Shown here one piece after another: positions 1,006 to 29,000 of a DNA stretch of 41,069 bases. The DNA is from a virus. Its lineage: Duplodnaviria; Heunggongvirae; Uroviricota; Caudoviricetes. Each line of letters begins with the position of its first letter. Within the stretch, counting starts at the first letter, position 1. A program made the position numbers and the translations under genes. The stretch covers positions 1 to 41,069 of IMG/VR virus record IMGVR_UViG_2737471864_000010; one strand, written 5' to 3'. The notes under the pieces are model-generated. The model made no database searches and was not told the origin of the DNA. It was given only the letters and a program-made list of their open reading frames with translations.

Positions 1006-1008
1006 ATT

Positions 1009-4379: not shown

Positions 4380-4874
4380 ATGAATATGATTACTCATAAA
4401 GAATTAACCTCTTCACTCAACTACAACCCAGAAACAGGCGTCTTCACTTGGAAGATAGCTTCTGGTAGCTCCAGTATCGGAAAGGTTGCTGGATTTAAGA
4501 CGAACTCACAGGCCGACTACTTATCAATACGGATTAATGGAAAATCGTATCTTTGCCACCGACTTGCTTGGTTTTATATGAAAGGATGCTGGCCTAAAGG
4601 GTTAATTGACCATATTAACGGGGTTAAAAATGACAATAGAATTTCAAACCTAAGAGAAGTAACCAGAGGTCAGAATAAAACCAACAGCGTTTCATCATCC
4701 AATACAGGTATAAAAGGAGTTCATCTTCTTAAAGGGAAAAACACATATAAAGTTATGTTCAAACTAAAAGGTAAGTCTATTTTCCTTGGGTATACCGATG
4801 ATATTGAGCTGGCAGAATTAATGTCTATTGCATTCAGGGAAAAATATCATGGCGAGTTTGCTTGTTTTAGGTAA
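4380..4874 (+). CDS. HNH homing endonuclease with AP2-like DNA-binding domain (paralog 1 of 3)
   Basis: 164 aa; motifs NYNPETG, HRLAW, DHINGVKNDNRISNLR and C-terminal GIKGV…KYHGEF; AAGGA ribosome-binding site 7 nt upstream. Confidence 0.75.
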   Translation: MNMITHKELTSSLNYNPETGVFTWKIASGSSSIGKVAGFKTNSQADYLSIRINGKSYLCHRLAWFYMKGCWPKGLIDHINGVKNDNRISNLREVTRGQNKTNSVSSSNTGIKGVHLLKGKNTYKVMFKLKGKSIFLGYTDDIELAELMSIAFREKYHGEFACFR

Positions 4875-4907
4875 TGTCTGTCATTTAATTTGCTCCAGAT
4901 ACAAGGA

Positions 4908-5007
4908 ATCGCCGCAGCATGGCTACGGTTGGCGTTTGTTTGGTTTTTGAACTACGAAAATTTCGTAGTGCTATCCATCAAGGCCATCGCCGCAGCATGG
5001 CTACGGT
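4908..5007. repeat. Two copies of a 22-bp direct repeat (ATCGCCGCAGCATGGCTACGGT) flanking a perfect 19-bp palindrome (ACTACGAAAATTTCGTAGT)
   Basis: Direct reading; copies at about 4908-4929 and 4986-5007, palindrome at about 4951-4969. Confidence 0.6.
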
Positions 5008-5019
5008 GAATTTTTGGCA

Positions 5020-5044
5020 TAAAAAAACCCAGCCGAAGCTGGGT
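5020..5044 (-). terminator. Intrinsic terminator downstream of ant
   Basis: Minus strand reads GACCCAGC-TTCG-GCTGGG followed by TTTTTTT. Confidence 0.65.
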
Positions 5045-5062
5045 CATTGCGTTGGTTATCTG

Positions 5063-5986
5063 TCAGTAGTTATGTACTGAAGGAGGTAATTCTTTATTCT
5101 TAAGTCTCATCCATGCGGAAAGATTCGCTGGTCCGTCTGGCTCATTAATATCAACATCTCGTGTGTGGTTTATTAAAACGTCTCTCGCCATTCCTATAAC
5201 ATACGAGAACTCATGACCGTAGTCGTAACATCTGCCGGAATAGTTCGATTGAATTTGTTTTAGCGCCGGATACAATTCGCGGAATAATGCCTGTGAGCGG
5301 TTGGCATAATCCCATAACCATACGAGGCTGTTTGCTTCTTTTGCAGAAAGCTCGTTGGTTTTCTTCTCTTGTTTGCAGATGAACTCACCTTCAAGCGGAA
5401 CGCGAGCTGCAAGTGACAGTGCTTCGGTAAACTGCTCCTCACTAATTTCTTTGTACGAACATCCAAAATGGGATTTCAGTGACGACCACATGGTGATCAT
5501 CGCCTTAGCCTGTTTTTCTTTTGGCAGAGACTGACCGCGACTCATGACGAGTTGTTTAATGGCTTCCTGCTGTTCAGTGGTGATTTTACCCTGCAACGCC
5601 TTTTTAGCTTTGCGTGGGTTAACTACATGGCCTTTAGTCCAGTACTCATAGAGCACATCGTCACACTCTTCCTGATACTGGATTACCTTGTCGCGGATTT
5701 CAGGGCGGACTTTGTTTGGACTGATGGTTTGCAACCAGCCATTAAGTTTACGTAAAGCAAGGCAAATCATGTTCTGCACACCGCCAACTGAAGGTATTGC
5801 GATTTCCACAATACCTTTAGCAAATCTTTGTTTTAACTTTGTAAACTGTGAAGCCCAATCCATACCCATTCCCTCAACGATAGGTTTCATTGGGGTGTAC
5901 GGCTCACCGTTGTGATTGACAACATAAAGCTCTGCGCCGTGGAATGGTACATTGATAGTAGATACTGCTGTTGCTATACTTTTCAT
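5063..5986 (-). CDS. ant: Antirepressor (Ant-like) protein
   Basis: 307 aa located downstream of an Arc-like gene and divergent from mnt, as in the P22 immI region; N-terminal region resembles phage antirepressor domains. Recognition from memory. Confidence 0.55.
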   Translation of the reverse strand: MKSIATAVSTINVPFHGAELYVVNHNGEPYTPMKPIVEGMGMDWASQFTKLKQRFAKGIVEIAIPSVGGVQNMICLALRKLNGWLQTISPNKVRPEIRDKVIQYQEECDDVLYEYWTKGHVVNPRKAKKALQGKITTEQQEAIKQLVMSRGQSLPKEKQAKAMITMWSSLKSHFGCSYKEISEEQFTEALSLAARVPLEGEFICKQEKKTNELSAKEANSLVWLWDYANRSQALFRELYPALKQIQSNYSGRCYDYGHEFSYVIGMARDVLINHTRDVDINEPDGPANLSAWMRLKNKELPPSVHNY

Positions 5987-6049
5987 GTCGTTAATTCCTA
6001 TGCGTGGTTTTACGATACCGAAGCCCTGACTGTTACCGCAGTTGGGGCT

Positions 6050-6253
6050 TCAACTTTCTGCTCTATCAGTTATATCTTTCCCTTCATATACTTCACCTAT
6101 ATTGCTAATGCTGGCAGAACATCCAAGATGCTTGTATCTTATGATGTCCAACACGCAGTCACTACACAGCATCCGACCTGTTTCTTTAGAGTAAATGTAT
6201 GTTTGATCAGCGTCTGATTCGCTAATGCCGCAGAAACAACATTCTTTACTCAT
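6050..6253 (-). CDS. Small Cys-rich (zinc-ribbon-like) hypothetical protein between arc and ant
   Basis: 67 aa with CCFC…CSDC cysteine pairs; start overlaps the arc stop. Confidence 0.4.
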   Translation of the reverse strand: MSKECCFCGISESDADQTYIYSKETGRMLCSDCVLDIIRYKHLGCSASISNIGEVYEGKDITDRAES

Positions 6254-6390
6254 ACCGTTATCCCCTCTCTCTTCAGGCTGTCCATCACCCGTTTAATTAC
6301 TTCTGCACTAAATGAGCGACACTCTTCCTTTGCTTTCTCTTCAAGGATTTTTTCTAACTTCTCTGGCATACGCAGTGTTTTTACCTTCAT
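6250..6390 (-). CDS. arc: Arc-like ribbon-helix-helix repressor (below the ORF-track length cutoff)
   Basis: Hand-called 46-aa ORF MKVKTLRMPEKLEKILEEKAKEECRSFSAEVIKRVMDSLKREGITV with a GGAGG ribosome-binding site; resembles P22 Arc. Confidence 0.5.
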   Translation of the reverse strand: MKVKTLRMPEKLEKILEEKAKEECRSFSAEVIKRVMDSLKREGITV

Positions 6391-6489
6391 TGCATCCTCC
6401 GTTGTATGTGGTACGCATACATAGTATTTAGGTACGCATTGATAGTCAATAGATACCTACATATCCTGTGGTAAAAAATTATTCAGGAT
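6391..6489. promoter_or_regulatory. Divergent immI control region (Pant/Pmnt-type) with operator-like palindromes
   Basis: Intergenic region between divergent arc and mnt-like genes; contains repeated GGTACGCAT and the palindrome ATTGATAGTCAAT. Confidence 0.4.
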
Positions 6490-6495
6490 GTGCCG

Positions 6496-6753
6496 ATGTC
6501 TGATCGTAAGTACAAAAACCCTCAAGTGAATCTGAGGCTTCCTGTAGAGATAAAGGAACGTCTTATTGAACTGGCTGAGGCTAATTCTCGTTCATTAAAT
6601 GCTGAGATGGTCGCGGCACTTGAAGCATGGACCGAAAAAAATAAACACATTCAAGCACTAGACCTTGCAACTATAGCATCACGATTGATAGATCTTGAAC
6701 ATGATGTTGAGAAGTTGAAATGCATGTATAGCAACAATAAAGACGAAAGTTAG
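6496..6753 (+). CDS. Ribbon-helix-helix (Arc/Mnt family) DNA-binding protein, second Mnt-like paralog
   Basis: Track ORF starts at a GTG at 6490; the ATG at 6496 with an AGGA site is preferred. The N-terminus NLRLPVEIKERLIELAEANSRSLNAEMVAAL fits the RHH pattern. Confidence 0.55.
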   Translation: MSDRKYKNPQVNLRLPVEIKERLIELAEANSRSLNAEMVAALEAWTEKNKHIQALDLATIASRLIDLEHDVEKLKCMYSNNKDES

Positions 6754-6776
6754 AGATACTAACTTGGAGTGATGGC

Positions 6777-7028
6777 ATGGCTAGAGACGATCCGCACTTT
6801 AACTTCCGTATGCCTTTGGAAGTAAGAGAAAAATTGAAATTAAGAGCAGAGGCTAACGGAAGGTCAATGAACTCAGAGTTATTACAAATCGTTCAGGATG
6901 CGCTATCAAAACCATCACCGATTGCAGGCTATCGAGACGATGCAGAACGCATCGCTGATGAGCAGTCCGAACTTGTTAGGAAGATGGTGTTTGATACGCT
7001 GAAGGATTTGTACAAAAAACCCACCTGA
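6777..7028 (+). CDS. mnt: Mnt repressor (ribbon-helix-helix)
   Basis: 83 aa MARDDPHFNFRMPLEVREKLKLRAEANGRSMNSELLQIVQDAL…, very close to P22 Mnt as I recall it. Confidence 0.8.
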   Translation: MARDDPHFNFRMPLEVREKLKLRAEANGRSMNSELLQIVQDALSKPSPIAGYRDDAERIADEQSELVRKMVFDTLKDLYKKPT

Positions 7029-7040
7029 CGGTGGGTTTTA
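7013..7040. terminator. Bidirectional intrinsic terminator between mnt and the convergent two-gene cassette
   Basis: AAAAAA-CCCACC-TGAC-GGTGGG-TTTT; overlaps the mnt stop codon. Confidence 0.6.
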
Positions 7041-7460
7041 TTAGTGCTTGTATAGGTTGAACTCTCTATCAAGCCATATAACAAAAAATGTCGATCCAAG
7101 ACGATAACCAACCATGGCTTTCAAATCATCAAATCTAAAAGCCAAGAAATGATCTACGTCTTCCGTTATATGACTGGGGATACCTGCTTTAATTGCACCC
7201 CTTGCAATCTTCTCAAATCCAAGCTTATGCCTACCTTGCTGCTTAATATCTGCCCATGTTAGTTGACTTAATCTGTATAATTTATCAGCTAAGCCAGCTT
7301 TCTCATCTTTTTGGCATTTCGTTATGCAGTGAGAGCTTTGGATGTAACAGAATGAAAATTTCGGTTTCTTTTGATCTGAATTCCCCCCTGACTGCGGCCC
7401 TAACTTTAACTTACCTGTAGATTCAGCAGGGGGGATAATCCTTTTAGATTTTCTTGCCAT
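7041..7460 (-). CDS. Hypothetical protein, candidate toxin partner of the upstream Panacea-domain protein
   Basis: 139 aa from MARKSKRIIPP…; starts 4 nt after the upstream stop. C-terminus …GYRLGSTFFVIWLDREFNLYKH loosely recalls RelE/YoeB-type toxin C-termini. No confident family assignment. Confidence 0.4.
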   Translation of the reverse strand: MARKSKRIIPPAESTGKLKLGPQSGGNSDQKKPKFSFCYIQSSHCITKCQKDEKAGLADKLYRLSQLTWADIKQQGRHKLGFEKIARGAIKAGIPSHITEDVDHFLAFRFDDLKAMVGYRLGSTFFVIWLDREFNLYKH

Positions 7461-7464
7461 CTCG

Positions 7465-7914
7465 TTAGTTAATCCGAGTTGCAAAGTACTCTGCCATCTC
7501 CTTAGAACTAATTTCAGAACCACCAACACCCTCAATATAGTTTGATCTCCATGGTGACTCTTCGTGTGTCATGTTCCTCAGTTTCCAGGCAGAAAATTGC
7601 CCAAAAACATCCCAGACTTCTTCTAATAGCTCTAACTGTTCTTCGCTGAATTTTTCAGCATCAAAAGACTCTGGAGAAGGGATAGCACCATTACCATATT
7701 GTTTATAACGGTGATAAAGCTCAGGGACAACAGGGCCATGCATCCAAGCTTCCATCTTATTCTGAAAAAGAGGCTCGCCAAGCAACGCCAATGAAAAACC
7801 CTGAGCATAGTAAACAAGCTTTTGTAATTTTAAATTAGAGATTGCGTCACCGCTATCCTCGTCACACCGCGACAGGAAGTAGTCGGCGACATCAAAACAA
7901 GTAAGCATGAACAC
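7465..7914 (-). CDS. DUF4065 / Panacea-domain protein (COG3600, GepA-like), candidate antitoxin
   Basis: 149 aa with the characteristic NLKLQKLVYYAQGFSLALLGEPLF…EAWMHGPVVPELY block; GGAGGTG ribosome-binding site. Recognition from memory. Confidence 0.6.
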   Translation of the reverse strand: MFMLTCFDVADYFLSRCDEDSGDAISNLKLQKLVYYAQGFSLALLGEPLFQNKMEAWMHGPVVPELYHRYKQYGNGAIPSPESFDAEKFSEEQLELLEEVWDVFGQFSAWKLRNMTHEESPWRSNYIEGVGGSEISSKEMAEYFATRIN

Positions 7915-8282
7915 ACCTCCATCTTGATAGCCACAGCTAAGTATCCAACTATGTCAAATGTCATTTAATACTATAACAAAGCTATCAGCAATCCTTCGGA
8001 GGCTAACTTACAACCACTTTAGCGACATGTTTAAACCATTACGTTTCACATTTACTGCATTTTCGCCGAAGTTACCTATAAGGTAATGTCACATTTCCTG
8101 CAAGTTTCATGCAATGTTGAAAAGTGAGCTATTCACTTTTCTATGACACCAAACACCAAAAATAGCACTTTTTGCTAAATCATTCGTCCAAGTTGTGGAT
8201 GGTTTGTCGTTGACACGTTTTCACACACCACTCCACCAATAAAGTATCATCTGGTATCCTGAGCAAAACTAAGGAGGTTGGT

Positions 8283-8777
8283 GTGTCTGATTCTATGAGT
8301 TACGCTGTGCTAGTTGCCGCAACTCTATTTCTGGGGATAGGGTTGCAGATTGCGTGGTTCTTTTTTTCTAGTTTTATTAAACGTAAAAGAATTGAATCAA
8401 GGATATCTGAGATTTCTATTGCTATAGGGAAAAATGCTGAAAATCCAGAGAATGAGGCCTGCGCACTGAATTACCTTAAAGAAAAGTTTTCCCCTGAAAA
8501 ATTTGAAAACAGAATTACTGATGCTCTTGGATTGGTAATATCAGTAATTCATATGCCACTAAGTTTGCTGATAACAGTGTGGTACTTCGCCATGATCGCC
8601 GGAAGAATATTTGGTTTCATGAATATAGAGCCTGTAGTTCTTTGGGTTCCAATGATACTGCAATTGTTGTTAAGCGTTGCTATCTTTATTTTTTCTGTTT
8701 TTATAAAAATTGTCTTCGGAAGATACCCCGGAGAAGCGAAGGGATTTAATAAAGAATTCATAAAAACTATAAAATAA
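8283..8777 (+). CDS. Polytopic inner-membrane protein at the sieA (superinfection exclusion) position
   Basis: 164 aa with about four hydrophobic segments; GTG start preceded by AAGGAGG; lies between the gp16-like gene and the immI region where P22 carries sieA. Homology to SieA not verified. Confidence 0.4.
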
Positions 8778-8799
8778 ATGCCGTCCTTGGCTTACAGTG

Positions 8800-10641
8800 C
8801 TACTGCCGGGTAGCTTCGTTAACTAAGAGCGGGCGCACGGCAGTAGCCGCCTGATTTAGCGCTCTTTCATAAGCTGGCGTTCCAGCTTTAGTGTTTGCCA
8901 GACGTAAGAGCGCATTCCTTGCTGCTTTGGATTCATACAAGCGCATCATTGCACCGAAACCAGCCTCAAGCCCCATTGATACGCCAAGAGTCGTAGTTGC
9001 GCCAATCGTCCTTATCCTGTTGGCTTGCGATTGCCCCGTCTGAGTTACTACATTTGCGGTGTCTGATCTTGCTGTTTGCTGTAGAACTTCATGAAGAGCA
9101 TCAAGTTCTTTCATGTGCTTTCCAGAAAAAATAGCGTTGTAAATTTCACCACCTGACTGAGATTTCAGCTTATTAACTTCCGTGATGAACTTGGCTGGAG
9201 AGTCACCGGCCTTTTCCGCTATTTTGCTGACGTAAGCTGCACGCATAGCATCTTTCCCTTTATCATCCAATGCGCTCCAGATTCGTTTCACGTCAGATGG
9301 TTTTCTGCTTAATACAACAGTATTTATAAGTTCAGGACTGGCTTCACTGCTTGCCTTGTTGAGCTTGTTAGCAATGTTTTTATTAAGCACCTTATTATAA
9401 ACGTTTGCATAATCGGAATTTGCTTTAAGGTATTTTGCTGCGTCTGAAGCACCGAGGTTTTTAGCAACTGCGTTACGAAGGTCTTTTGACATTGCATTCT
9501 CTACCATATTGGTAGCTGCTTTTGCCTGGTTGGGGAAGACCATGGCATCTCCCTGAACATTAGATCTAAATGCTGTTCTGTGCTGGCGCAAGAGATCAAA
9601 CGTAACATCCAAATCAGTTGCAGGGTTTGCTAATTCTTCACGTAGGTTACGCAAGGATGTAAGCAGGCTTTGATTGGCAGAAGTCCCAAGCCGTTCCTGT
9701 CTTGCGATCGCTGTATTCAGAGCATTCATGGTATTTGTGGTATCAACTGCGGCATTACCCATTTTATTGGTGACGTCATTGATAACAGCGCCAGCGGCAT
9801 CCTTCCGTCCCCTTAACGTGGTGGTCAGAGATTTCACCACATCATCAGGGTTGTACTCACCAAAACGGTCAAAATAATTGCTTACCAGCTTACTACGCGT
9901 TGCATATTGCTCCGCTCTCTTTGAGCCTGTCCCGAGCAAAGCCCCCTCGGCATCCTGAGTAAGGCCGCGAGTGAAAGCATTTTTCGGCGGGATAACATCA
10001 GATGTCATTGGTGTCACGCCCATCGATTCTGATGTGGCAATTTTCTTCGCCACTTCTGGCGCAATATCACCTTTTATAGCCGTTATTCCACGCCCTATTC
10101 CCTTTGCTGCTGCGGAAAGAACACCCTGAGCGGCAAGGTTAACTCCGGCATTTTTAGCTGCATTTTGTGCGAAATCACCTTTCTGATTTGCGGCCTCTGC
10201 CAGTGATCCAATAGCCATGCTTCCTGCCGTTCCAACTCCTGGAACTAAATACCCGCCAATTGTTTCTCCAGCTTGAGCGTAGGGGTCTGTCGGTCTGTCT
10301 ACTGGACGATAAACATCATCCAAAACCTTGGGGCCACCAAGCCCCTGACTGATTGCATTAATCAGACTTGCGCCACCCTGCAATACGTCAAATGGTATGT
10401 TTACCAGACCACGACCAGCCTGTTCTGCAATTTGCCCTGCACTTTGACCACCAGTGAGCCAATCGCCAGCTTGTTGCATCAATGATGGTTCTTCCCGTGT
10501 TGGTGCATTATTGGCCTGATTAACTGTTTGTTGCTGAACAGCCTGACCAGCAAAATACTCATCAATGGCGGTGCCAATATCTTCGGTGCTCGTACCATCA
10601 GGGAAGGTAAATGTCTTACCGTTTGCAGTTACTTTCATCAT
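8800..10641 (-). CDS. Ejection (internal virion) protein, P22 gp16-like
   Basis: 613 aa, Ala/Gly-rich; size and position after gp7 and gp20 match P22 gene 16. Confidence 0.65.
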
Positions 10642-12089
10642 TCCACCGTAAATTGAATGCCTGATTTTGACGTGTAGCTACCTCCTGCTGATTGCTGAGT
10701 AGGCGGCTGTTGCATTGATGATTTCTTCCCTCCATTACCGACATTAACGTTATATTGCTGGTTGTAATTGTCGGTATATTGCTGAATGTCGCGCATTGAT
10801 TGTTGCAGCGCTTCAGGACTTGAGAAATCAGGCTTTGGCATACCCTGAAAATACCTATTGGCCTCTGCTTCGGTGTTGATGCCAGATGCCCCCATATCTC
10901 GGGCTGCTGCAATCCCCTGATTTTGCATTTTGCCCATGATTCGCTGTGCAGCGTTGTATAGCCTCCTCTGATCACCACCAGATGCACGGCTACGAATATC
11001 TGCACCAAGAGCAAAAGAACCTGAAGAACCTGTAATACCTGTCATGAAGCCAAGATCGTCAATTGATGCGCCAGAAATTGCATCAATATCTTTCTTCATT
11101 TCGTAATTCTGTGCATTAGCTGCCGATGTAGCCGGAGCAGCAATAGAACTGGCGGGGACGCGAATCATATTGCCCTCGTTGTCTATTCCTTCGTAGAACG
11201 CATTAGCACCAGCGCCGTGAAGCTTCCTACCAACCGTTACTGTTCTGCCATCTGCCAGTTGCACAACATTCTCCCCGCCAGCATCAGGACGGCCTCGAAC
11301 ACGAAGATATGTCTTTTGTTGCTCCGGAGACAGGCTGTTGAAATATTGATATTCTTTAACAGATGCAGGAACAGCACCTCCAGCAGTGCGCAGGGAGTTT
11401 TCACGGCTAACAGCAATGCTTTGCGCCTGTAAACCTTCCCCAGCTTTATTGCTGCGAATCGTCTCTGCCAACTTGCCACGCTCAATATCCCGCCCCTCCA
11501 TTCGATCTTTTATATCGAAGTACTTCTCATGACCGAGAGAAAATAGTGCCAGATTACCTGCGAAGTGCTGGAAGCCCTGCGGGTCATTAACCTGCATTTC
11601 AGCAATAGTTTCTGGAGGTATACCTAAACGACGCATCTCCTTTTCGTTATCCATCATGAACCTGCCAAATGCACCCGAGCCAAGCGACGAAGCTACCTGA
11701 GCCTTGAGCGCCAGATTGCCAAAATCATCCCGCTGGGCGTCATCGACATAGCCCATTCCTTTACGGACTTCCTCAAACTCTTCAGGGAATGCTGTAATAA
11801 GATTACGCATCTGCTCCCTGTCGCCGGACGCATAAGCATCTGCATAACCTTTCTGGAATGCAGCTTTACGCTCCTGCTGTTGCTGCTGCTTATAAATATC
11901 AGCAACTCCAGCCAGACCACGTAACGCGGTCAGACCAACGTTATTTACACCTGAGCGAGCCAGTTCATTGTTTTCGCGGATCAGGCCAAGCGTTGCATTA
12001 ATGTCTTTTGCCTTTGGCGCATTCTCGTTTTGCGCACCAATGCCAGCCAGAAAACCACCAGAATTAATACCCTGTTGCCACGTAGCCAT
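10638..12089 (-). CDS. Ejection protein, P22 gp20-like
   Basis: 483 aa; gene order and size. Confidence 0.65.
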
Positions 12090-12099
12090 TGATTACCCC

Positions 12100-12792: not shown

Positions 12793-12794
12793 GG

Positions 12795-13888: not shown

Positions 13889-13891
13889 ATT

Positions 13892-15310: not shown

Positions 15311-15319
15311 TTATTCACC

Positions 15320-15950: not shown

Positions 15951-15961
15951 TGTCTTCTCCC

Positions 15962-15984
15962 AATAAAAATGGGGCCGAAGCCCC
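15962..15984 (-). terminator. Intrinsic terminator immediately downstream of the coat gene
   Basis: Minus strand GGGGC-TTCG-GCCCC followed by ATTTTTATT. Confidence 0.7.
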
Positions 15985-15991
15985 ACCTAAA

Positions 15992-17245: not shown

Positions 17246-17263
17246 GCTTAATGCTCCGATAGG

Positions 17264-18157: not shown

Positions 18158-18247
18158 TTGTTACCCCTGTTTACTCGATGTTCAGCCCATCGGAAGGCAA
18201 TAGGGTGCCAGGCCTCATAAAGACAGCCATTGCACGTTATGGGTTAA

Positions 18248-20446: not shown

Positions 20447-20447
20447 A

Positions 20448-21863
20448 TCAACCTACACCACAAGGAATTGAGTAACTGGAATAGTCGGGTTGCGCAGCCG
20501 ACTCCGGGCAATGCATACACATCATCAGCGCATCAGCCAGGTTAGGAGATGGAATACCGAGCTTCTGCTTCATTTCGACCTTAGTCATTAGCTCCAGCTT
20601 CCCGTTGTTATTGAATTTGCGCTGAATCTGCGTAAGTTCTGCAAACAGCTTCTCCAGCATCTTCTCGCCTATTGCTTCTTTGTCGAAACTCAGCATGTCG
20701 TCGGGGTCTGCATACTCACCGTGGACAACCGCCCGATATGTCAGATACAGCCTGTCAGCCAGCGCGTAATAGAATTGCGCTCGCTTATTGCGGAATACAT
20801 CGCCAATAGTACGAACGTTGTCGCCCTGTACGACTTCATCGGCCCATGCTCCGGCCTGATATGGTGCATCTTCATCGAATGGCGATTCGCTGCCCTTGAA
20901 CATCGTGGCGGTGATTTTCTTGCCGGAGAACGCTTCCGTTGTCTGTCTGCGTAGCCCCGCACCAACACCATCACCATCCCACAGGTAATGGTCAGCGCCG
21001 TCTTCAATCGCCAGCGAAGTAGCCCAGTCAGCACCCTCGTTGATGTCCATCAGCAGACCTTCGGCAATGCGCTTAACCACCGAACCGTGACGCGATGCGT
21101 AACCTTTAGCATCCGGCCCTGTATCTGACGGGTCATGTGCAGAAACAACCGCGCCTTTCGCTTTCCATCCGAGTTTCTTGTGCGCATCGGTTGCGGCTTC
21201 AAGCCATTCACGTTTGATGATTGCCATATCACTTGCGCTTACTGGCTCACCAAGCCAGATGTGACGATACAGTGTCGGATTTCTGCGTTTACACTCTTCC
21301 ATCTCCAGACGGAGAACTTCAGGAAAATGCGGGTTGTCGGTGTAGTTCACCGTCAGCAGGCAAATATCATCGGGAGGATTTACAACGAACCGCTGATAGG
21401 TATCGTCGAGGATGTTTTTCGGGTTGAAGCTCACCCATATTTCAGAGAACGGCTTACGGATGGTTGGTATCAGGATATCCCACGATTCCTTTGTTACCGC
21501 TTCCGCTTCTTCCACCCAGCAGATATCAATGCCTTCTAGCGATTTAATCTTCGTCGGGTTGTTTTTGATGCCGTAGAACATGAACTCAGCATTCGTTCCG
21601 AGATGACGAATCATGGAACGCTGAATTTCAAACTCAGCCGAATACCCTTCACGCTCGATAGTGTCTTCAAGCAACCGGATTACCGAATCGCTGATACTGT
21701 TTTGCAGTTCACGAGCGCAAAGTATGCGCACAGGCTGCCGACGCGCCGCTTCAACAAGCAGCCTCGCAATTGCCCATGACTTACCGCTACCTCGACCGCC
21801 TTTGGCGACTTTGTAGCGATGCGCCTCAATGAACGGTTCAAAGATAGGATTAATCGAGGTCAT
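20448..21863 (-). CDS. Terminase large subunit
   Basis: 471 aa; Walker A GGRGSGKS near the N-terminus; overlaps the small-subunit gene by 4 nt. Confidence 0.9.
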   Translation of the reverse strand: MTSINPIFEPFIEAHRYKVAKGGRGSGKSWAIARLLVEAARRQPVRILCARELQNSISDSVIRLLEDTIEREGYSAEFEIQRSMIRHLGTNAEFMFYGIKNNPTKIKSLEGIDICWVEEAEAVTKESWDILIPTIRKPFSEIWVSFNPKNILDDTYQRFVVNPPDDICLLTVNYTDNPHFPEVLRLEMEECKRRNPTLYRHIWLGEPVSASDMAIIKREWLEAATDAHKKLGWKAKGAVVSAHDPSDTGPDAKGYASRHGSVVKRIAEGLLMDINEGADWATSLAIEDGADHYLWDGDGVGAGLRRQTTEAFSGKKITATMFKGSESPFDEDAPYQAGAWADEVVQGDNVRTIGDVFRNKRAQFYYALADRLYLTYRAVVHGEYADPDDMLSFDKEAIGEKMLEKLFAELTQIQRKFNNNGKLELMTKVEMKQKLGIPSPNLADALMMCMHCPESAAQPDYSSYSIPCGVG

Positions 21864-22282
21864 TTTCCGAACAGAGTGCTCATCGGTGATGTTTCAATCT
21901 GAATTGCGCCGCCGTCCTTACCGACAAGCTCGTTAGTTACCTTGTCGCCATACTTACGGGGATTCATTCGGGCCAGCGCCCATTTGCGGGTATCAACGCG
22001 AAGTCTTGCCTTTGCCACTTCAGCAGCATCTGGAATCGCATTGTCAGCAATTTCGAATATCTCTTCGAAAATAGAATCAGCTCGTGCCTCAGTTGCCTTC
22101 GCGTACTTGTCGCGAAAATCCTCATGCTTTGCCAACCAGCGGAAAACAGTGGACTTATCCGGCATACCAGGACGCTTACATACTTTCAGCAAACTTTCGC
22201 CAGAAGAAAGCAACGAGCAGATATCGTCAGCCACCTCCGGCATATAATCAGAGGGGCGACCAGCTTTTGGTTCAGTCGCCAT
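21860..22282 (-). CDS. Terminase small subunit (Sf6 gp1-like)
   Basis: 140 aa MATEPKAGRPSDYMPEVADDICSLL… with a helix-turn-helix-like N-terminus; immediately upstream of the large subunit. Confidence 0.8.
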   Translation of the reverse strand: MATEPKAGRPSDYMPEVADDICSLLSSGESLLKVCKRPGMPDKSTVFRWLAKHEDFRDKYAKATEARADSIFEEIFEIADNAIPDAAEVAKARLRVDTRKWALARMNPRKYGDKVTNELVGKDGGAIQIETSPMSTLFGK

Positions 22283-22494
22283 ATTTATCTCACTTAATTG
22301 TCATTTCAGGCTGAGGACTCTTTCGCGCCTTCAATCAGTGACTGCTTCAGCAATTCGAGTGTGCCAATCGCCTCGCATAAACTGATTTCACCATCGTAAT
22401 CATGGATGACGCTTTCCAGCCTCTCGTATAGCTCTTGAGTAATTGGGAATTTCTTCTCCTTACCAAGATCAACGACGCTTGTCATAGAGGATTC

Positions 22495-22782
22495 CTATAA
22501 TTTTGAATATCCAGACTCAAATACCTCAGCAGGAGAATATGATTCATATCCATCCTCATAGACAACGTAATAGCCTCCAGACATTGGTCGGTGCTTACAG
22601 ATATATTCCGCGCTAACATCAAATGCTGCGTATTTCTTATCATCCGGATGAATAATTGCCCCATAACTAGAAGAGCCAGTCTTACCAGACTGATCTGGGT
22701 TTGGCTTATGTTCTATAGAGCCAATCTTCATGGCGCGAACTTTTTTGTGGCACTGGTATCTCGGCATTTCTTGTTCAGTCAT
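22495..22782 (-). CDS. Hypothetical phage protein
   Basis: 95-aa ORF between the Rha-like gene and terminase; no family recognised. Confidence 0.4.
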   Translation of the reverse strand: MTEQEMPRYQCHKKVRAMKIGSIEHKPNPDQSGKTGSSSYGAIIHPDDKKYAAFDVSAEYICKHRPMSGGYYVVYEDGYESYSPAEVFESGYSKL

Positions 22783-22785
22783 CTC

Positions 22786-23028
22786 TTACACTCCGGTAGT
22801 GAACAGGTCTAACGCTTCCTTCGATTTACGCACCGCTTCGATAGTGCGCGTCGTGATATCTGAATTAGCGCCGCCTGACTGGAAGTGAATTTTGAATAGC
22901 TCAAGCTTCAGCTCGTCAGTGCCAATGAACTGAAATGCTTCTTCTGCGGCTGCGTTCTGGTTCATGACCAGTTTGTAAATCTCTAACTGGAATTTCTGTT
23001 CTTCAGTCATGGGAATAATCTCTGCCAT
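22786..23028 (-). CDS. Hypothetical phage protein
   Basis: 80-aa ORF tightly packed with neighbours on the same strand. Confidence 0.4.
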   Translation of the reverse strand: MAEIIPMTEEQKFQLEIYKLVMNQNAAAEEAFQFIGTDELKLELFKIHFQSGGANSDITTRTIEAVRKSKEALDLFTTGV

Positions 23029-23131
23029 TGTTGGCTCCGTTTATCCGTTAAAAGGGATATCAGTTAAGTTATCCCGTGTAGGGTATAAGCCATTATCAAA
23101 GCCACTCTGTAGGGAATGGCTTTTGTAATAA

Positions 23132-23503
23132 CTACTGTTCGCTTAGCTTCTGCTTCAGCAAGTAACCTTCGAGCATCCAGATTTTGTTTACAGCATTCTG
23201 CCGGGCAATCTTCCGACCAATTTCTGCATCAAAATTTTCCGGACTTGCACAGGCACTCTCTCCGGTGACGGTGAAGCCGTTGCGCAGCACCAGGACGCAG
23301 AACGTCAGCAGAGAAAGTGATTCGTGCGGCTGGTAGTTTACCTCTCCGCCAGTATGTTTCGCTTTTATGGCTTTGCCAAAGGCACCATCCTCTGCTGTGA
23401 AATATGCCTCCTGAGCAATAATGCCTTCGATATGGTCTGGCGTAACGCGCGGTGCCGTTTTGCCTTTCTCAACGATTTCTTTTTCGATTTGCTGGTCGTT
23501 CAT
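23132..23503 (-). CDS. Conserved phage protein, possibly N4 gp49 / Sf6 gp66 family
   Basis: 123 aa; family assignment is from memory and tentative. Confidence 0.45.
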   Translation of the reverse strand: MNDQQIEKEIVEKGKTAPRVTPDHIEGIIAQEAYFTAEDGAFGKAIKAKHTGGEVNYQPHESLSLLTFCVLVLRNGFTVTGESACASPENFDAEIGRKIARQNAVNKIWMLEGYLLKQKLSEQ

Positions 23504-23661
23504 AATTATGACCCTGTAGAGTGGTTGCTTGATTAGGATGTCTTTCCATCAGTCCGCCACCACAAAGAATCTTTTTTGCCAGAAGACTGGAGGTTCATCT
23601 TTCAGTGGCTGCCAGTGTTATTTCCCCACTTACTGGCTTGGGTTGTTTCGCTGTACTGCCG

Positions 23662-24204
23662 TTAATTGATGAGTCCGGGGATTACGGTTTGCCCGTGCTG
23701 TTCAAGGCGTTCAATTCTAGCCATCAGCTGTGGCTTCTTAATTTTGCCCCAGCGATTTAGCAGGCGACCTGACATGCTGGCAACATCCTTCTCTTTCATG
23801 TACTCCAGCATTACGGCATTTCTCTCTTCTTCAAATTGACGATGACCAACCTGAAGCATGGCGTACATCCAGTTAAATGCGTTGATGTAAGCAATTTTGA
23901 TACGCATTGCTTCTTTTTTGGTGTAGGACATAACCAAAAGCATCAACCCATCCTTGCGGAGACGGTAGAATTTTTGCGGCTTACCATTCTGTAACTCATT
24001 GTTTTTATAGCAAAGCTCAAAGTTGAGCTTTGTATCAAACTCAGGAGGGCAAGCTTCTATGGTTCGCTCAATGTCACGAACCACGTTCTTCGGCAGCTTT
24101 CCAAATGCTTTTGCCACCATAAAAGAATCTGTAACCGGATCGTTGTTTGCCACAAAAATCAGTTCTCGGAAATCGATGCCGTTAACGATAGTTGGATAAT
24201 TCAT
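23662..24204 (-). CDS. Rha-family phage regulatory protein
   Basis: 180 aa; N-terminal …VAKAFGKLPKNVVRDIERTIE fits the Rha motif; located after the lysis genes as in P22-like phages. Confidence 0.55.
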   Translation of the reverse strand: MNYPTIVNGIDFRELIFVANNDPVTDSFMVAKAFGKLPKNVVRDIERTIEACPPEFDTKLNFELCYKNNELQNGKPQKFYRLRKDGLMLLVMSYTKKEAMRIKIAYINAFNWMYAMLQVGHRQFEEERNAVMLEYMKEKDVASMSGRLLNRWGKIKKPQLMARIERLEQHGQTVIPGLIN

Positions 24205-24349
24205 CAGTGCTCACCTTTTAGTGATGAACCTTGTCACACAGGATTCCGGCCCACAGAAAGGCACCGATAACCAAACCGGCATCCTCAAGGGTCATCCTGA
24301 AAGGTTCTGTGTTCATAAGTCGCGCGTGTGAAGCGCGTTTACTGCGGAC

Positions 24350-24376
24350 ATAAAAAAGCCCCGCATCGCGAGGCTC
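24350..24376 (-). terminator. Candidate intrinsic terminator downstream of Rz/Rz1
   Basis: Minus strand GCCTCGC-GAT-GCGGGGC followed by TTTTTT; one stem mismatch. Confidence 0.5.
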
Positions 24377-24406
24377 ATTAAATTGACTTTGTGATTTGCA
24401 AAAAAA

Positions 24407-24856
24407 TTATTTCAGGCATTGCGTCCTGATGTACTCCTGCAGGTAGTTAACCTGCGCGGTTATCTTGTCGATTCCACTTCGGAGACGGTAATAATTGAGT
24501 TCAGCATCTGCTGTAAGTCCTGGGCTTTCTCCATCGCCCATGCTGCTGGCTCCGGTCGTTGACTTTGCACAGGTGGCGGCGACTTGCAGGCGCTTACGCC
24601 CAGCAGAAACATCAGCACGGAGACTTTCGATAGTCGCGTTAGCATCAGCAAGCTCCTTTGTGTATCTGGCGTCGAGTTCAGCTACATCACGTTGACGCTT
24701 CTGCATATCAGAGATGATAGATGTGGCTTTATCGCGCTGGTCTTTGTAGGCGATGGCATTATCACGGTAATGATTGACCGCCCACGACAGGCAGACGATG
24801 ATGCAGATAACCAGAGCGGAGATAATCGCGGTTACTCTGCTCATTGTTGCCCCCAC
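24407..24856 (-). CDS. Rz-type i-spanin
   Basis: 149 aa with N-terminal transmembrane segment and helical periplasmic domain; follows the endolysin gene. Confidence 0.75.
24460..24651 (-). CDS. Rz1-type o-spanin lipoprotein, embedded in the +1 frame of Rz
   Basis: 63 aa; signal peptide with lipobox VSAC followed by a Pro-rich mature region. Confidence 0.7.
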
Positions 24857-25344
24857 AAACAGACTTCACGCTCAATCTCACGACGAGTCATCAGGCCTTT
24901 CCATTGCTTACCGCCAGCGTATGTCCAGCGACGTAGCTGGTCACATGCGCCTTTGATATCGCCCTGGTTTATTTTGCGAAGAAGCGTCGATGTTCTGAAA
25001 TTGCCAGCACCCACGTTGTAGACGAACGAGTAAAGAGCGCCGCGCGTTGTTTCCGGTATATCAACTTTTATGTACGGGTTAATTTGTCTGGCGACCGTGG
25101 CAAGGTCTTTATTCAGGAGGGCTTTGCATTCTGCTTCGGTATACGTTTTACCGAGCATAATGTCTTTTCCGGTGTGTCCGTGACATACAGTCCATACACC
25201 AACGATATCTTTGTATGGTATGTAGCTGACACCTTCCAAACCATCGTTACCACTTGGTCCAGTGATTAACACAGATGCTATAGCAATAGCCCCGCCACTT
25301 ATCGCCGCTATTACGCTATTTCGTAGTGCCGGTGACATTGCCAT
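24841..25344 (-). CDS. SAR endolysin (T4-lysozyme-type muramidase with N-terminal signal-arrest-release domain)
   Basis: 167 aa; Gly/Ala-rich weakly hydrophobic N-terminus followed by an E-x8-D-x5-T catalytic arrangement (…[24 protein letters not shown]…). Confidence 0.85.
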
Positions 25345-25519
25345 TCAATCTGTCCTCGCGCTCTTTGCGCTTGTAGTACCAGTTGATGCCAAATGTGCCG
25401 ACAGTACAAAGAATACCAATGATGACAGCCCAGTCATTCAGGGAGAGAATGCCACCCATCGCAGTCAGTCCTCCGAAGCTGTAACTGAACCATTCTCTGA
25501 TTTTGTCCATACGGTACAT
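25316..25519 (-). CDS. Holin (pinholin-like, two transmembrane segments) with dual-start motif
   Basis: 67 aa beginning MYRMDK (two Met codons separated by Tyr-Arg); two hydrophobic segments; immediately upstream of the SAR endolysin. Confidence 0.7.
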
Positions 25520-25860
25520 GCTCTACCCCTTCATTGAGGGGATTTGCTCTATTTAATTAGGAATAAGGTCGATTACTGATAGAACAAATCCAGGCTACTG
25601 TGTTTAGTAATCAGATTTGTTCGTGACCGATATGCACGGGCAAAACGGCAGGAGGTTGTTAGCGCAGCCTCTTGCCACCCGCTTTCACGAAGATCATGTG
25701 TAGAAGGCCGCAGCATAACTATCACTGATGAATTCAGGATAGCCAGTGGCTACGGCTCAGTTTGGGTTGTGCTGTTGCTGGGCGGCGATGACGCCTGTAC
25801 GCATTTGGTGATCCGGTTCTGCTTCCGGCATTCGCTTAATTCAGCACAACGGAAAGAGCA

Positions 25861-26330
25861 TTTATGGCTCGCATCGCGGGAAAAAGCCCACGGTAGAGAG
25901 TCGAACTCTACAAATACTCTTACCTGTTGTGCGCTCCGTTTCGTGGAGCTAACGGCGACGCTAGTACCGGTCTATGCGTCGCACCCTTGAGGGATTTACT
26001 AAGGCGACATGCCCGTTGTTACCCACTCAATTGGACCCTCCCCGTCGCCATCTGGGTCTAGTCAGGAATCGAACCTGCCGAGGGTACATTTGAATGGGTG
26101 CCCATTATTAATCACACCGGGCCAGTGCGCCGAATTTGGTAGCGGGGAGTCGGAAGACCCCGTGATTTTGGTTTCTTAGGCCGCCATCAACATCAAATCA
26201 TCGTTTGCATTTATCTTTGTGGTCAGTTTCTAAAAACCCGCAAAGTCGACAACTCTGACGAAAACTATCGTTGTGCTGCCACAACGATAAGAGCACTCGG
26301 TGCATTTAAGCCAAGCCCCATAAGGGAGAA
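25861..26330. other. Structured non-coding segment of about 470 bp between tR' and the holin, with a tRNA-like T-arm motif and terminator-like hairpins; appears inserted relative to the lambda arrangement I recall
   Basis: No ORF of 60 aa or more; contains GGCAGGTTCGATTCCTGAC on the minus strand, a 10-bp perfect inverted repeat TATCGTTGTG/CACAACGATA, and copies of CTCTTACCTGTT at about 25917 and 26333. Confidence 0.4.
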
Positions 26331-26352
26331 TGCTCTTACCTGTTACACAGAT

Positions 26353-26412
26353 ATAAAAAATCCCGAAACCGTTATGCAGGCTCTAACTATTACCTGCGAA
26401 CTGTTTCGGGAT
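26353..26412 (-). terminator. tR'-like terminator of the short late-leader (6S-type) transcript
   Basis: Long hairpin CCCGAAAC…GTTTCGGG followed by TTTTTT on the minus strand; matches lambda tR' as recalled. Confidence 0.7.
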
Positions 26413-26543
26413 TGCATTTTACAGACCTCTCAGCCTGCGATGGTTGGAGTTCCAGACGATACGTCGAAGTGACCAACTAGGCGGAATCGGTAGTAAGCGC
26501 CGCCTCTTTTTATCTCACTACCACAACGAGCGAATTAACCCAT

Positions 26544-27035
26544 CTATCCCATACTGGAGAATTCACCATGATATTTTATCCTGGCATTTTCCATTGCCTT
26601 TCTCGCCTCCTCGATATCGTCAAAACACCCTACATGAATCCTTTTACCATTGACCCTAATTCTTCCAACCCACTTGTTTGCAGCAGAATTAAAAGTCACC
26701 CCCTTCACACCAGATGAATTGTTTTTCCTCATCTTGCTGTTCCATGAGTTTTGAGTGTTAGTAACAACACGAAGATTGGCTATCCGGTTATCAGATCTAT
26801 CACCATTAATATGGTCAATCACATCGGTTGGCCAATCATTGTAAACCATCAGCCATGCAATTCTATGGACATATAGCCGCATTCCATAAAGTTTTACCTG
26901 CAGATATCCATTTGTTTTATAGCCAACAACAGCGCCATAGATAAATCTAGATGACCGAGGTGGATTCTTCCATGTAAGAATTCCAGTATCTGGATTGTAA
27001 TTAAAAAGTCTCAATGCATCTTCACGTTTTAACAT
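26544..27035 (-). CDS. HNH homing endonuclease with AP2-like domain (paralog 2 of 3), located inside the pR'-tR' leader
   Basis: 163 aa; NYNPDTG, HRIAW, DHINGDRSDNRIANLR, GVKGV…KYHGEF. Confidence 0.75.
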   Translation of the reverse strand: MLKREDALRLFNYNPDTGILTWKNPPRSSRFIYGAVVGYKTNGYLQVKLYGMRLYVHRIAWLMVYNDWPTDVIDHINGDRSDNRIANLRVVTNTQNSWNSKMRKNNSSGVKGVTFNSAANKWVGRIRVNGKRIHVGCFDDIEEARKAMENARIKYHGEFSSMG

Positions 27036-27235
27036 AGGCGAACCACATAGATATTAGAGCCTGCTGACATAGAAATATCACCACGAGAGAAGTCGCCAAA
27101 AGCGATATTTCTCAGGCTCTATTCCTATGTGCTCTCGAGTTTATGATGCGCATGTCAGTGCGCTTAGAACTTAAAGATGAGGTGGGTAAAAACTGAAAGA
27201 ATGTGAACGGATATAAATCTGCCATTCTTGGGTCA

Positions 27236-27264
27236 AATTTACCCAACTTTATTCAAAAAGTCAA
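27236..27264 (-). promoter_or_regulatory. Late promoter pR' (-35 TTGACT, 17-bp spacer, -10 TAAATT) with the start of the Q-utilisation region
   Basis: Minus strand TTGACTTTTTGAATAAAGTTGGGTAAATTTGAC…, near-identical to lambda pR' as recalled, about 40 bp downstream of Q. Confidence 0.7.
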
Positions 27265-27306
27265 TATTATGCCGTTAATATGTTGCCATCCGTGGCAATC
27301 ATGCAG

Positions 27307-27930
27307 CTAACGTGTGACCGCATTCAAAATGTTGTCTGCGATTGACTCTTCTTTGTGGCATTGCACCACCAGAGCATCATACAGCGGCTTAACAGTGCGT
27401 GACCAGGTGGGTTGAGTAAGGTTTGGGATTAGCATCGTTACAGCGCGATATGCGGCGCTTGCTGGCATTCTTGAATAGCCGACACCTTTGCATCTTCCGC
27501 ACTCTTTCTCAACAACTCTCCCCCACTGCTCTGTTTTGGCTATATCAACCGCACGGCCTGTACCGTGGCAATCTCTGCATCTTGCGCCCGGCGTCGCGGC
27601 ACTACGGCAATAATCCGCATAAGCGAATGTTGCGAGCACTTGCAGTACCTTTGCCTTAGTATTTCCTTCAAGCTTTGCCACGCCACGGTATTTCCCCGAT
27701 ACCTTGTGTGCAAATTGCATCAGATAGTTGATAGCCTTTTGTTTGTCATTCTGGCTGAGTTCATGCTTACCGCAGAATGCAGCCATTCCGAATCCGGCTT
27801 GTGATTGCGCCATCCCCATAGCAGCCATCACATCAGTACCGGAAAGAGAGTCAGAAGCCGTGGCCCGTGGTGAGTCGCTCATCATCGGGCTTTTTGGCGA
27901 ATGAAATTTAGCTACGCTTTCGAGTCTCAT
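27307..27930 (-). CDS. Q: Late-gene antiterminator Q (lambda Q type)
   Basis: 207 aa MRLESVAKFHSPKSPMMSDSPRATASDSLSGTDVMAAMGMAQSQAGFGMAAF…, which I recognise as essentially lambda Q. Confidence 0.9.
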   Translation of the reverse strand: MRLESVAKFHSPKSPMMSDSPRATASDSLSGTDVMAAMGMAQSQAGFGMAAFCGKHELSQNDKQKAINYLMQFAHKVSGKYRGVAKLEGNTKAKVLQVLATFAYADYCRSAATPGARCRDCHGTGRAVDIAKTEQWGRVVEKECGRCKGVGYSRMPASAAYRAVTMLIPNLTQPTWSRTVKPLYDALVVQCHKEESIADNILNAVTR

Positions 27931-28475
27931 CGTCTTCCCTTTTTGCCTGGCGTTACCATCAGGACGCCGTTAACTATTACGTGACGCTCGCCTTTGCTGT
28001 CTCGGTTGTACTTGAGCACTGTTCCTCTTGCGCAGGAAAGCATCCTCGCCACTTCGCTCTGATTGCCTCGTGTCTGGATAAGAAGCTCTGGTATCGTTTG
28101 AATTGTGGCGTTCATACGTTCTCCAGGTTCGGTGATTTTTATTCCAAGCCTTCCGCCTGGTACTTTCACACCACGAATTACGCGAATGTCATCGAATTGC
28201 TCGTCGTCTTCCGCAAATCCGGCGTGGATAAGGGAGTCGAGTAAACCTTTCAGGATGTTGTCGAGGTCGCGGCGGCGGGAGTCTGGAACGTCTGCAATGA
28301 CTTTGATGCGGAGTCGTGATTTGGTGAAAATGTCTAACTTGAGTTGCCGGATTATTTGCTGTACGTCTTTTCGGTATTTCTGGCCTTTATCGCTTATGTA
28401 ATATTGGCTTCCCCGTCTTCGCCAGTAGGTATTCAGCGACGGTGGGTACGGAAGTGTGAATCTGTATTCTGCCAT
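27927..28475 (-). CDS. rusA: Holliday-junction resolvase RusA fused in frame to a NinH-like helix-turn-helix domain
   Basis: 182 aa; first ~120 aa show RusA motifs (LPYPPSLNTYW, DVPDSRRRDLDNILKGLLDSL); last ~60 aa (MNATIQTIPELL…GNQSEVARMLSCARGTVLKY…) resemble lambda NinH. Confidence 0.7.
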   Translation of the reverse strand: MAEYRFTLPYPPSLNTYWRRRGSQYYISDKGQKYRKDVQQIIRQLKLDIFTKSRLRIKVIADVPDSRRRDLDNILKGLLDSLIHAGFAEDDEQFDDIRVIRGVKVPGGRLGIKITEPGERMNATIQTIPELLIQTRGNQSEVARMLSCARGTVLKYNRDSKGERHVIVNGVLMVTPGKKGRR

Positions 28476-29000
28476 TTATCCTCTCCCATGATTATGGTGA
28501 TACCCCAATCGTGATTCCGCCAATTTTCTGGCATTAACGGCTAGAGATATGTCATCGTATAATCCAAGAAATATCTTTTTATTATCACTGTTTATATATG
28601 CGCCCCACTTTTTATTCTTCTTATAGTAGGCAACACCCATTACTCCAGAGCGATTATTAATAGGCTTTTTTCTGTTCCTTGAGTTCTGTTTATCATCTAC
28701 AACGCGCAAATTGCATATTCTGTTATCGCTTTTAATTCCATTTATGTGGTCAATTTCCCCATCAGGTTCGCTTCCATAAAATGATATCCATGCGATTCTA
28801 TGAGCTCGACAAACTTTTTTATTTACAGATATACGAACGTATCCTTTTTCATCTATAGAACCAGCAATCTTACCGGCATATGTTGAATTCCAGCACTCTC
28901 TTACACTTTCTCTTCTTTTGTATATAAACAAACCTGTTTCGCTATTATATTCATACAATTCATTGATTTCTTTTTGTGTTGGATATCTTTTACCGTTCAT
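28476..29000 (-). CDS. HNH homing endonuclease with AP2-like domain (paralog 3 of 3)
   Basis: 174 aa; EYNSETG, HRIAW, DHINGIKSDNRICNLR, GVMGV; strongly AT-rich; start and stop abut the neighbouring genes. Confidence 0.75.
   Translation of the reverse strand: MNGKRYPTQKEINELYEYNSETGLFIYKRRESVRECWNSTYAGKIAGSIDEKGYVRISVNKKVCRAHRIAWISFYGSEPDGEIDHINGIKSDNRICNLRVVDDKQNSRNRKKPINNRSGVMGVAYYKKNKKWGAYINSDNKKIFLGLYDDISLAVNARKLAESRLGYHHNHGRG

Follow-up and report, generated by a model that had tools for sequence, protein, structure and literature searches.

We analysed a stretch of phage DNA of 41,069 nucleotides (nt) from the class Caudoviricetes (IMG/VR record IMGVR_UViG_2737471864_000010, positions 1 to 41,069), hereafter called the window. 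It is a P22-like (Lederbergvirus-type) Escherichia coli prophage, integrated at tRNA-Arg(CCT). Three open reading frames (ORFs) of this prophage had been singled out from the sequence as diverged homing endonuclease genes with an HNH nuclease and an AP2-like domain, and all three are present at the expected places and on the expected strands. HNH1 (4380..4874, + strand; 164 amino acids) lies antisense to ant and to the tailspike gene, and HNH2 (26544..27035, - strand; 163 amino acids) and HNH3 (28476..29000, - strand; 174 amino acids) lie in the Q and nin region. Each of them is an HNN-AP2 endonuclease gene. They are free-standing, with their own start and stop codons and no in-frame fusion to a host gene.

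Both sequence and fold place the three proteins in this family. Their Pfam HNH_3 scores are 55.5 bits for HNH1, 61.5 bits for HNH2 (E 6e-17) and 60.7 bits for HNH3, for a cut-off of 24.8 bits, and the best PHROG match is each time phrog_99 ("HNH endonuclease"); NCBIfam gave zero matches for all three proteins. The motifs first noticed (NYNPETG-like, HRxAW, DHINGxxxDNRIxNLR and GxxGV...YH) are indeed common to the three. Their alignment contains 45 invariant columns, including the DH, DNR, NLR and QN boxes. Residues D77, H78, N86, N90 and N99 (HNH1 numbering) are invariant across the trio; in 42 homologues the first four are invariant and N99 is found in 90% or more. A profile of the three proteins matches I-HmuI (PDB 1u3e; E 5e-6), of which D74, H75, N87 and N96 line up with the invariant D, H, N and N. 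On alignment, the HNH catalytic residues (I-HmuI-type D-H...N...N) are therefore intact in all three. Because CxxC pairs are not visible in any of the three protein sequences, we assign them to the zinc-less HNN-AP2 class.

The C-terminal part of the same profile matches plant AP2 domains. With Pfam, the AP2-like domain claimed for all three proteins passes for HNH2 only (33.6 bits for a cut-off of 33.3) and stays below the cut-off for HNH1 and HNH3. For these two, structures were predicted from the 42-sequence alignment (HNH1 pLDDT, the predicted local distance difference test, 93.4; HNH3 87.6), and both models end in three strands and a helix, i.e. a complete AP2 fold. The AP2 domain is thus supported by Pfam in one case and by structure prediction in the two others. 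The similarity with the I-HmuI fold also holds in the predicted models. In the modelled layout, an N-terminal DNA-binding sheet like that of I-HmuI is followed by the zinc-less HNH nuclease and, at the C-terminus, by the AP2 domain, which would bind DNA. At its gathering thresholds, Rfam detected no intron or leader family at the insertion sites, the sar RNA and the tRNA being its only matches in the window.

Then, we investigated the origin of the three copies. Their shared architecture and similar length could reflect a duplication within this genome, followed by divergence. However, the end-to-end pairwise identity is only 37-43%, in agreement with the divergence noticed originally, and near-identical recent duplicates are ruled out. 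In the set of 42 sequences, each of the three ranks 17th to 41st among the relatives of the other two, and the nearest relative of each lies outside the trio. Since none of the three is the closest relative of another, they were acquired separately. Moreover, each type is found alone at its own site in many other prophages. An intragenomic duplication was rejected on this ranking and on the presence of one site per type, and we consider it hardly credible. A six-frame scan of the window with a hidden Markov model of the family retrieved exactly these three members and no family remnant. The guanine-cytosine (GC) content of HNH1, HNH2 and HNH3 is 0.370, 0.392 and 0.349, respectively, vs. 0.463 for the window and 0.49-0.54 for the neighbouring Q, rusA and DUF1364 genes. 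The AT-richness, first reported for at least the third gene, is therefore real for all three.

To compare the insertion sites, we relied on about 200 loci from relatives (designated by L numbers below). Each gene is present or absent at one defined site: 5 filled and 78 empty alleles were found for HNH3, 12 and 14 for HNH2, and 6 and 39 (P22-type empty) for HNH1. The three sites are separate, as the original prediction stated, but they are not simply intergenic: HNH3 is inserted at codon 3 of rusA, HNH1 after codon 5 of the tailspike gene, and HNH2 at position +3 of the pR' transcript. Likewise, the near absence of intergenic space holds for HNH3 (4-nt overlap upstream, 0 nt downstream), holds by half for HNH1 (the tailspike start is 20 nt away and the ant stop 188 nt) and does not hold for HNH2, which lies 271 nt after Q and about 1 kb before the holin gene.

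In relatives without HNH3, the stop codon of the DUF1364/YbcO gene overlaps the start of rusA in ATGA. HNH3 takes this same start (ATGAACG), overlapping the DUF1364/YbcO stop, and its own TAA stop abuts a new rusA start, ATGGCAG. The insertion is linked to a recoded 5' end of rusA (28443..28475, - strand), in which MAEYRFTLPYP replaces MNEYQFVLPYP. Thirteen fixed differences separate the filled from the empty alleles, all within nt 4-33 of rusA; the remaining part of rusA that was examined (roughly 325 nt) and 288 nt of DUF1364 contain none. In an exact-match scan of IMG/VR, the recoded 32-mer of rusA was retrieved in 18 contigs, with HNH3 immediately upstream in every one of them (18/18). An index of the assembly collection lists the exact HNH3 protein in 1,444 blocks; among the matches listed, it lies between YbcO and RusA in all eight places, with either of two Q types downstream. 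HNH3 lacks expression signals of its own, being part of the nin operon by translational coupling.

The surroundings of HNH2 are those of the late promoter. The promoter pR' (TTGACT-17-TAAATT) and the Q-binding region, located at 27236..27264 (- strand) by promoter scan and lambda alignment, are intact immediately upstream of the cassette. The cassette itself (26545..27227, - strand) consists of 683 nt replacing a single C at +3, namely a structured leader of about 190 nt followed by the ORF, of which the stop codon reaches 26544. A lambda-type tR' terminator (CCCGAAAC...GTTTCGGGATTTTTT; 26355..26410, - strand), near-identical to the 3' region of the lambda 6S RNA, stands downstream of HNH2. 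The cassette is thus flanked by pR', the 6S leader and tR' (aligned to lambda 44,499-44,899), and the HK630 record annotates the homologous stretch as a promoter "similar to lambda Qut site". The empty alleles read ...TAAATTTGACCCAA-C-GATGGGTTAATTCG, i.e. CCAA-C-GATGGG, and the filled alleles CCAA-[GAATGGCAG...GGGATA]-GATGGG, the bracketed part being the 683 nt. It is this comparison that places the insertion at +3 of the late transcript, with tR' downstream of the gene. In the 200 nt on either flank, no fixed difference exists between the 12 filled and the 14 empty alleles.

In lambda, the sequence AACGAT at +1..+6 is a -10-like element within qut that induces a sigma70-dependent pause for the loading of Q, positions A2 and T6 being the key ones. 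The insertion shifts this hexamer to AAGAAT (27224..27229, - strand) in 12 of the 12 filled alleles, A at position 2 and T at position 6 being kept. AAGAAT therefore resembles a pause element, and Q can presumably still load. Lambda pR' is constitutive and its transcripts end at tR' unless Q is present, so the HNH2 ORF should be part of a Q-independent transcript. The leader together with the first 16 nt of the ORF (210 nt) folds with a free energy of -59 kcal/mol (z -3.5), and forms a long hairpin just ahead of the start codon, with no U-tract after the hairpin. In the index of the assembly collection, 1,724 blocks contain the exact HNH2 protein, which, among the matches listed, starts 272 nt downstream of a lambda-type Q in eight out of eight places, whatever lies further out. 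We found no description of an endonuclease gene in the pR' leader in the literature. In one locus (L069, about 3013-3500), an internal partial duplication of some 137 nt disrupts HNH2, and the result looks like a decaying copy of the same cassette. In the empty alleles, the sequence AACGA contains or adjoins the insertion points of both HNH3 (ATGAACG|AATAT; 28994-29000 in the window) and HNH2 (CCAAC|GATGG; 27224-27229), which is probably due to chance.

HNH1 is inserted antisense in a P22-type tailspike ORF. In CUS-3 and epsilon34, 100 nt with the ant terminator separate ant from the tailspike start, ATGACAGACATTAC... The ribosome-binding site and the first five codons of this ORF (GGAGCAAATTAA ATGACAGACATTAC) are still found in the window at 4875..4900 (- strand), as shown by alignment with CUS-3, epsilon34 and Kapi1, and this remnant marks the insertion point. 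The old tailspike start is kept at 4888-4875 and reads straight into a TAA created by the insertion. The distance between the remnant motif and codon 11 is 16 nt in the 39 empty loci vs. 541 nt in the 6 HNH1 loci. On the other side of the gene, the tailspike possesses a substitute 5' end of about 135 nt (4225..4359, - strand), with a new start at 4359 (MSNIVPNVII...). This block shares 47-70% identity with the P22-class alleles without insertion, vs. 90-100% beyond about nt 165, and it is 97-100% identical between the window and all five other HNH1-bearing IMG/VR loci. In Kapi1, a different paralog (42% identical) is joined to the same remnant at the same base, and two further family types occur at the tailspike 5' end in L128 and L132. 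We found no description in the literature of the Kapi1 HNH gene, nor of homing endonucleases at the P22-like tailspike junction.

The start codon of HNH1 is likely the ATG at 4386 rather than that at 4380: it is preceded by AAGGA 6 nt upstream and is the start used by RefSeq in E. coli ET734. A promoter-like site (TTGAAA-16-AATATT; 4326..4353, + strand), found by consensus scan only, lies upstream of HNH1 within the recoded tailspike 5' end; although the match is weak, it may be the promoter of HNH1. Between HNH1 and the ant terminator, a perfect direct repeat of 22 bp (ATCGCCGCAGCATGGCTACGGT) is found at 4908-4929 and 4986-5007, with a spacing of 78 nt, and brackets an extra segment with a small hairpin (GAACTACGAAAATTTCGTAGT). 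CUS-3, epsilon34 and Kapi1 have one copy of this repeat and lack the extra segment, which the HNH1 locus L087 appears to share.

We then looked at the distribution of the family across relatives. At least 12 family types, defined by less than 85% identity, were identified among about 190 fetched loci, each at one site only. Four types use the tailspike 5' site and three the region downstream of Q, two of them after a lambda-type Q and one after a second Q type, which we take to be the 82-type; the nin and replication region has further types at other places. Differing types have landed repeatedly in the Q-to-holin leader and at the 5' end of the tailspike gene (L014, 3704-4204; L008, L013, L043 and L082, about 4545-5057; L085, L128 and L132, upstream of the tailspike). 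Site specificity is strict, the same protein type being always at the same site, in varied distal backgrounds, and look-ups with the exact proteins each time gave the same neighbouring genes. The combinations also differ between prophages: HNH2 and HNH3 occur together in L175 and L179, HNH1 and HNH3 without HNH2 in E. coli ET734 (prophage at tRNA-Arg), and all three in the window. One P22-like IMG/VR contig of 39 kb also has three members, two in L043 and one in L128. The repeated and separate invasion proposed originally is thus borne out: the three genes are diverged, are not mutual nearest relatives, have a site each, and are combined differently from one prophage to another.

From 5,426 complete E. 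coli genomes, the three types were found in 19, 33 and 7 genomes, respectively (0.1-0.6%). No place in these genomes covers at least 80% of positions 4300-29100 of the window, which span all three genes, or of positions 26000-29700. A comparison with 50,697 deposited phage genomes detected none of the three types at an identity of 60% or higher, although bacterial assemblies commonly contain HNH2 and HNH3. We dropped this absence as a lead, as it is probably a sampling effect: matching empty sites occur in only 51 and 30 phage records, so that zero occupied sites are expected at 3-6% occupancy.

To evaluate selection, we counted polymorphic sites, limiting the count to copies that had not been selected by protein identity. 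Fifteen sites were synonymous and 5 non-synonymous, whereas the synonymous fraction expected is 0.21 (p = 3e-7), which shows purifying selection on the reading frames. This result bears on the possibility that the genes are inactive relics of old invasions, carried passively. Such a fate is known in this family, as HNN-AP2 genes decay after fixation (PMC2248197), and HNH1 falls below the Pfam AP2 cut-off. Besides the disrupted HNH2 of L069, a truncated HNH1 relative of 116 amino acids (P0002) was found. However, the three ORFs of the window are full length with an invariant D-H...N...N, the models are confident (pLDDT 93 and 88) with complete AP2 folds, and synonymous changes predominate. Judging from these sequence features, the three genes are probably still functional, and we regard passive carriage of dead genes as very unlikely.

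Taken together, we think it likely that these are three separately acquired, free-standing HNN-AP2 homing endonuclease genes, which are site-specific insertions and spread by homing into empty sites. Each enzyme would recognise the uninterrupted form of its own site in related phages without the gene, and would nick or cut there. As candidate targets, we propose roughly the first 30 nt of rusA (HNH3), the pR' start/qut region (HNH2) and the 5' end of the tailspike gene (HNH1). By analogy with I-HmuI, the enzymes may nick rather than cut both strands. Recombinational repair from a gene-bearing genome would then copy in the endonuclease gene with a short flanking tract. Carriers would be immune, the HNH2 insertion splitting its site, and HNH1 and HNH3 being protected by the recoded adjoining 5' end of the target gene. 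In the proposed scheme, the interrupted genes would also be repaired: HNH3 would take the translationally coupled start of rusA and supply a new ATG, HNH1 would supply a new tailspike start and about 45 codons, and HNH2 would retain the -10-like AAGAAT at +1..+6, with Q presumably still loading. Judging from position, HNH3 would be expressed together with the delayed-early nin operon and HNH1 from an antisense promoter of its own, while pR' would serve HNH2, also through the leader transcript that is made without Q and stops at tR'. A more speculative extension concerns HNH2, which might target a cis-regulatory element, the pR' start/qut site, instead of a coding sequence. Carried in the leader transcript made without Q, it would be produced continuously in lysogens and would cut the late-promoter region of superinfecting or co-resident lambdoid phages without HNH2, thereby combining homing with interference competition, AAGAAT keeping Q antitermination possible. 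On this view, rival lineages of endonucleases would more generally compete for the tailspike 5' end (four types) and the leader downstream of Q (three types) as hot spots. We hold this to be possible but rather doubtful.

The main rival to homing is that the genes are accessory or "moron" cargo serving the prophage or the host, e.g. nucleases that cut superinfecting competitors, and that they spread by ordinary homologous recombination in conserved flanks. Cargo genes could well look like this: the three inserts are AT-rich and lie in a mosaic region, their reading frames are under purifying selection, and their occupancy is low and patchy. In addition, HNH2 is located between pR' and tR', a stretch that is transcribed without Q in lambda, and could therefore be expressed in lysogens. 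However, the architecture is that of a homing endonuclease family, and homing predicts precise insertions at the starts of genes and transcripts, with the sites recoded or split, as observed here. PADLOC matched no defence-system model and gave only a weak generic "homing endonuclease" model, which indicates no link to a known defence system. Competitor exclusion and homing are compatible with each other, and we consider cargo as the whole explanation to be unlikely.

Several points weigh against the homing interpretation itself. Occupancy is low, with about 4-6% of the sampled alleles filled at the HNH3 site and 0.1-0.6% of complete E. coli genomes containing any given type, which is unlike a rapidly sweeping element, though cycles of gain, decay and loss are typical of such genes. 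One HNH2 copy (L069) is disrupted. The recoded tracts next to HNH1 and HNH3 could be DNA of the donor lineage, linked by adjacency rather than selected for immunity to cleavage. Moreover, the putative cleavage of the empty sites and homing into them, as well as the presumed expression of HNH2 from a constitutive leader and the retained Q function, are deduced from sequence.

The other features of the prophage are as follows. The left end of the window (1-1083) is host DNA, with a formate/nitrite-transporter family gene and then tRNA-Arg(CCT) at 1009-1083, directly followed by the integrase gene (1209-2402). The attachment locus is of the same kind as in E. coli ET734 (L192), and the prophage's right end lies outside the window. 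The gene content includes the tailspike, ant, the sar RNA, virion genes, lambda-type lysis genes, Q and the nin region. The AT-rich tailspike gene (2524..4359, - strand; GC 0.376) encodes a P22 head-binding domain and a GDSL/SGNH esterase domain instead of a glycosidase, which suggests an O-antigen-deacetylating receptor-binding protein. In the nin region, rusA and ninH are fused into one ORF of 182 amino acids (27927..28475, - strand) by one extra C at about 28126-28127 (GAACCTGG vs. GAACTGG in L001, L002 and L004), 12 nt ahead of the normal rusA stop; rusA and ninH are two overlapping genes in all relatives examined. The fusion could be a real frameshift or a sequencing error.

Multiple endonuclease genes of this kind in one phage have been described previously. 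HNH-AP2 proteins are an established homing endonuclease family (Magnani 2004, as cited in PMC2248197 and PMC10448857), and its genes are located at the borders of genetic exchange between phages (PMC10448857). In Xanthomonas phages, 6-8 HNH endonuclease genes are present, the majority being of the HNN-AP2 type (PMC2248197), and the P22-like phage SEN22 has two homing endonuclease genes by annotation (PMC5261728). Out of 50,697 deposited phage records, 3,057 match the family, with 4,617 places in total and as many as five in one record among the matches listed. The description of three copies in one prophage as unusual was thus overstated, although this particular triple is rare. As the family is widespread and multi-copy phages are known, while each of the three types is rare in E. 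coli, the triple is uncommon but the phenomenon is not new.

The closest counterparts are the HNN-AP2 genes of the Xanthomonas phages Xp10, OP1 and Xop411 (PMC2248197) and the IPA-HNH of ICP1 (PMC10448857). They share the zinc-less HNH with HRLAW, DH, DNR and NLR boxes, the C-terminal AP2 domain, a length of about 160-175 amino acids, and the presence of several diverged copies per genome between conserved genes. However, the Xanthomonas study reported no conserved flanks and proposed a sequence-independent spread (PMC2248197), whereas the genes of the window have one exact site per type, defined empty alleles and a recoded or split target. The host also differs, being here a temperate P22-like/lambdoid E. 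coli prophage. I-HmuI is an HNH nicking endonuclease of the Bacillus phage SPO1 encoded within a group I intron, whereas the window genes are plain ORF cassettes in which Rfam found no intron. Furthermore, its C-terminal DNA-binding part is helical (helix-turn-helix), where the window enzymes have AP2. Since the fold is similar but there is no group I intron, the window enzymes may work like I-HmuI without being members of its group.

The "intronless homing" of T4 type (SegF, SegG, MobE) involves mostly GIY-YIG enzymes of virulent phages, with homing experimentally demonstrated. As in the window, these genes lie beside a conserved gene and carriers differ at the target; as proposed for the window genes, the target would be in the neighbouring gene of genomes that lack them, and the flanks are co-converted. 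By contrast, we infer the homing of the window genes from comparative anatomy only. HK97 gp74 is also an HNH-superfamily protein encoded in lambdoid phages, but its type is a zinc-binding PF01844 HNH beside the terminase genes of cos phages, whereas the window genes are HNH_3-AP2 and absent from most relatives. A terminase-helper role of this type was rejected, as the domain is HNH_3 and not PF01844, and as the tailspike, Q and nin regions, where the genes are located, are distant from the likely terminase ORFs (20448..22282, by collinearity with Kapi1). In the Kapi1 GenBank record (L190, 13842-14132), the annotation "HNH endonuclease" is given to a gene of 96 amino acids that precedes rusA, in the position of DUF1364/YbcO, and the same label in the RefSeq records of HK97, HK620, mEp235 and others appears to mean this same gene. 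The DUF1364/YbcO gene is outside the HNH-AP2 family, and its label inflates the number of homing endonuclease genes obtained by naive counting.

As both the family and its occurrence in several copies per phage were already known, the main value of these observations is descriptive. They provide three exact candidate homing sites in the best-understood group of temperate phages, for which nature offers both empty alleles (lambda, HK97, P22, CUS-3) and presumably resistant ones. Most interesting is that an endonuclease cassette occupies position +3 of the late transcript, within the pR'-tR' leader; this offers an opportunity to ask whether late-gene control survives the presence of an endonuclease gene in the qut/6S leader. 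If our interpretation is correct, lambdoid and P22-like phages would be a convenient system for studying how homing endonucleases shape mosaic boundaries in temperate phages.

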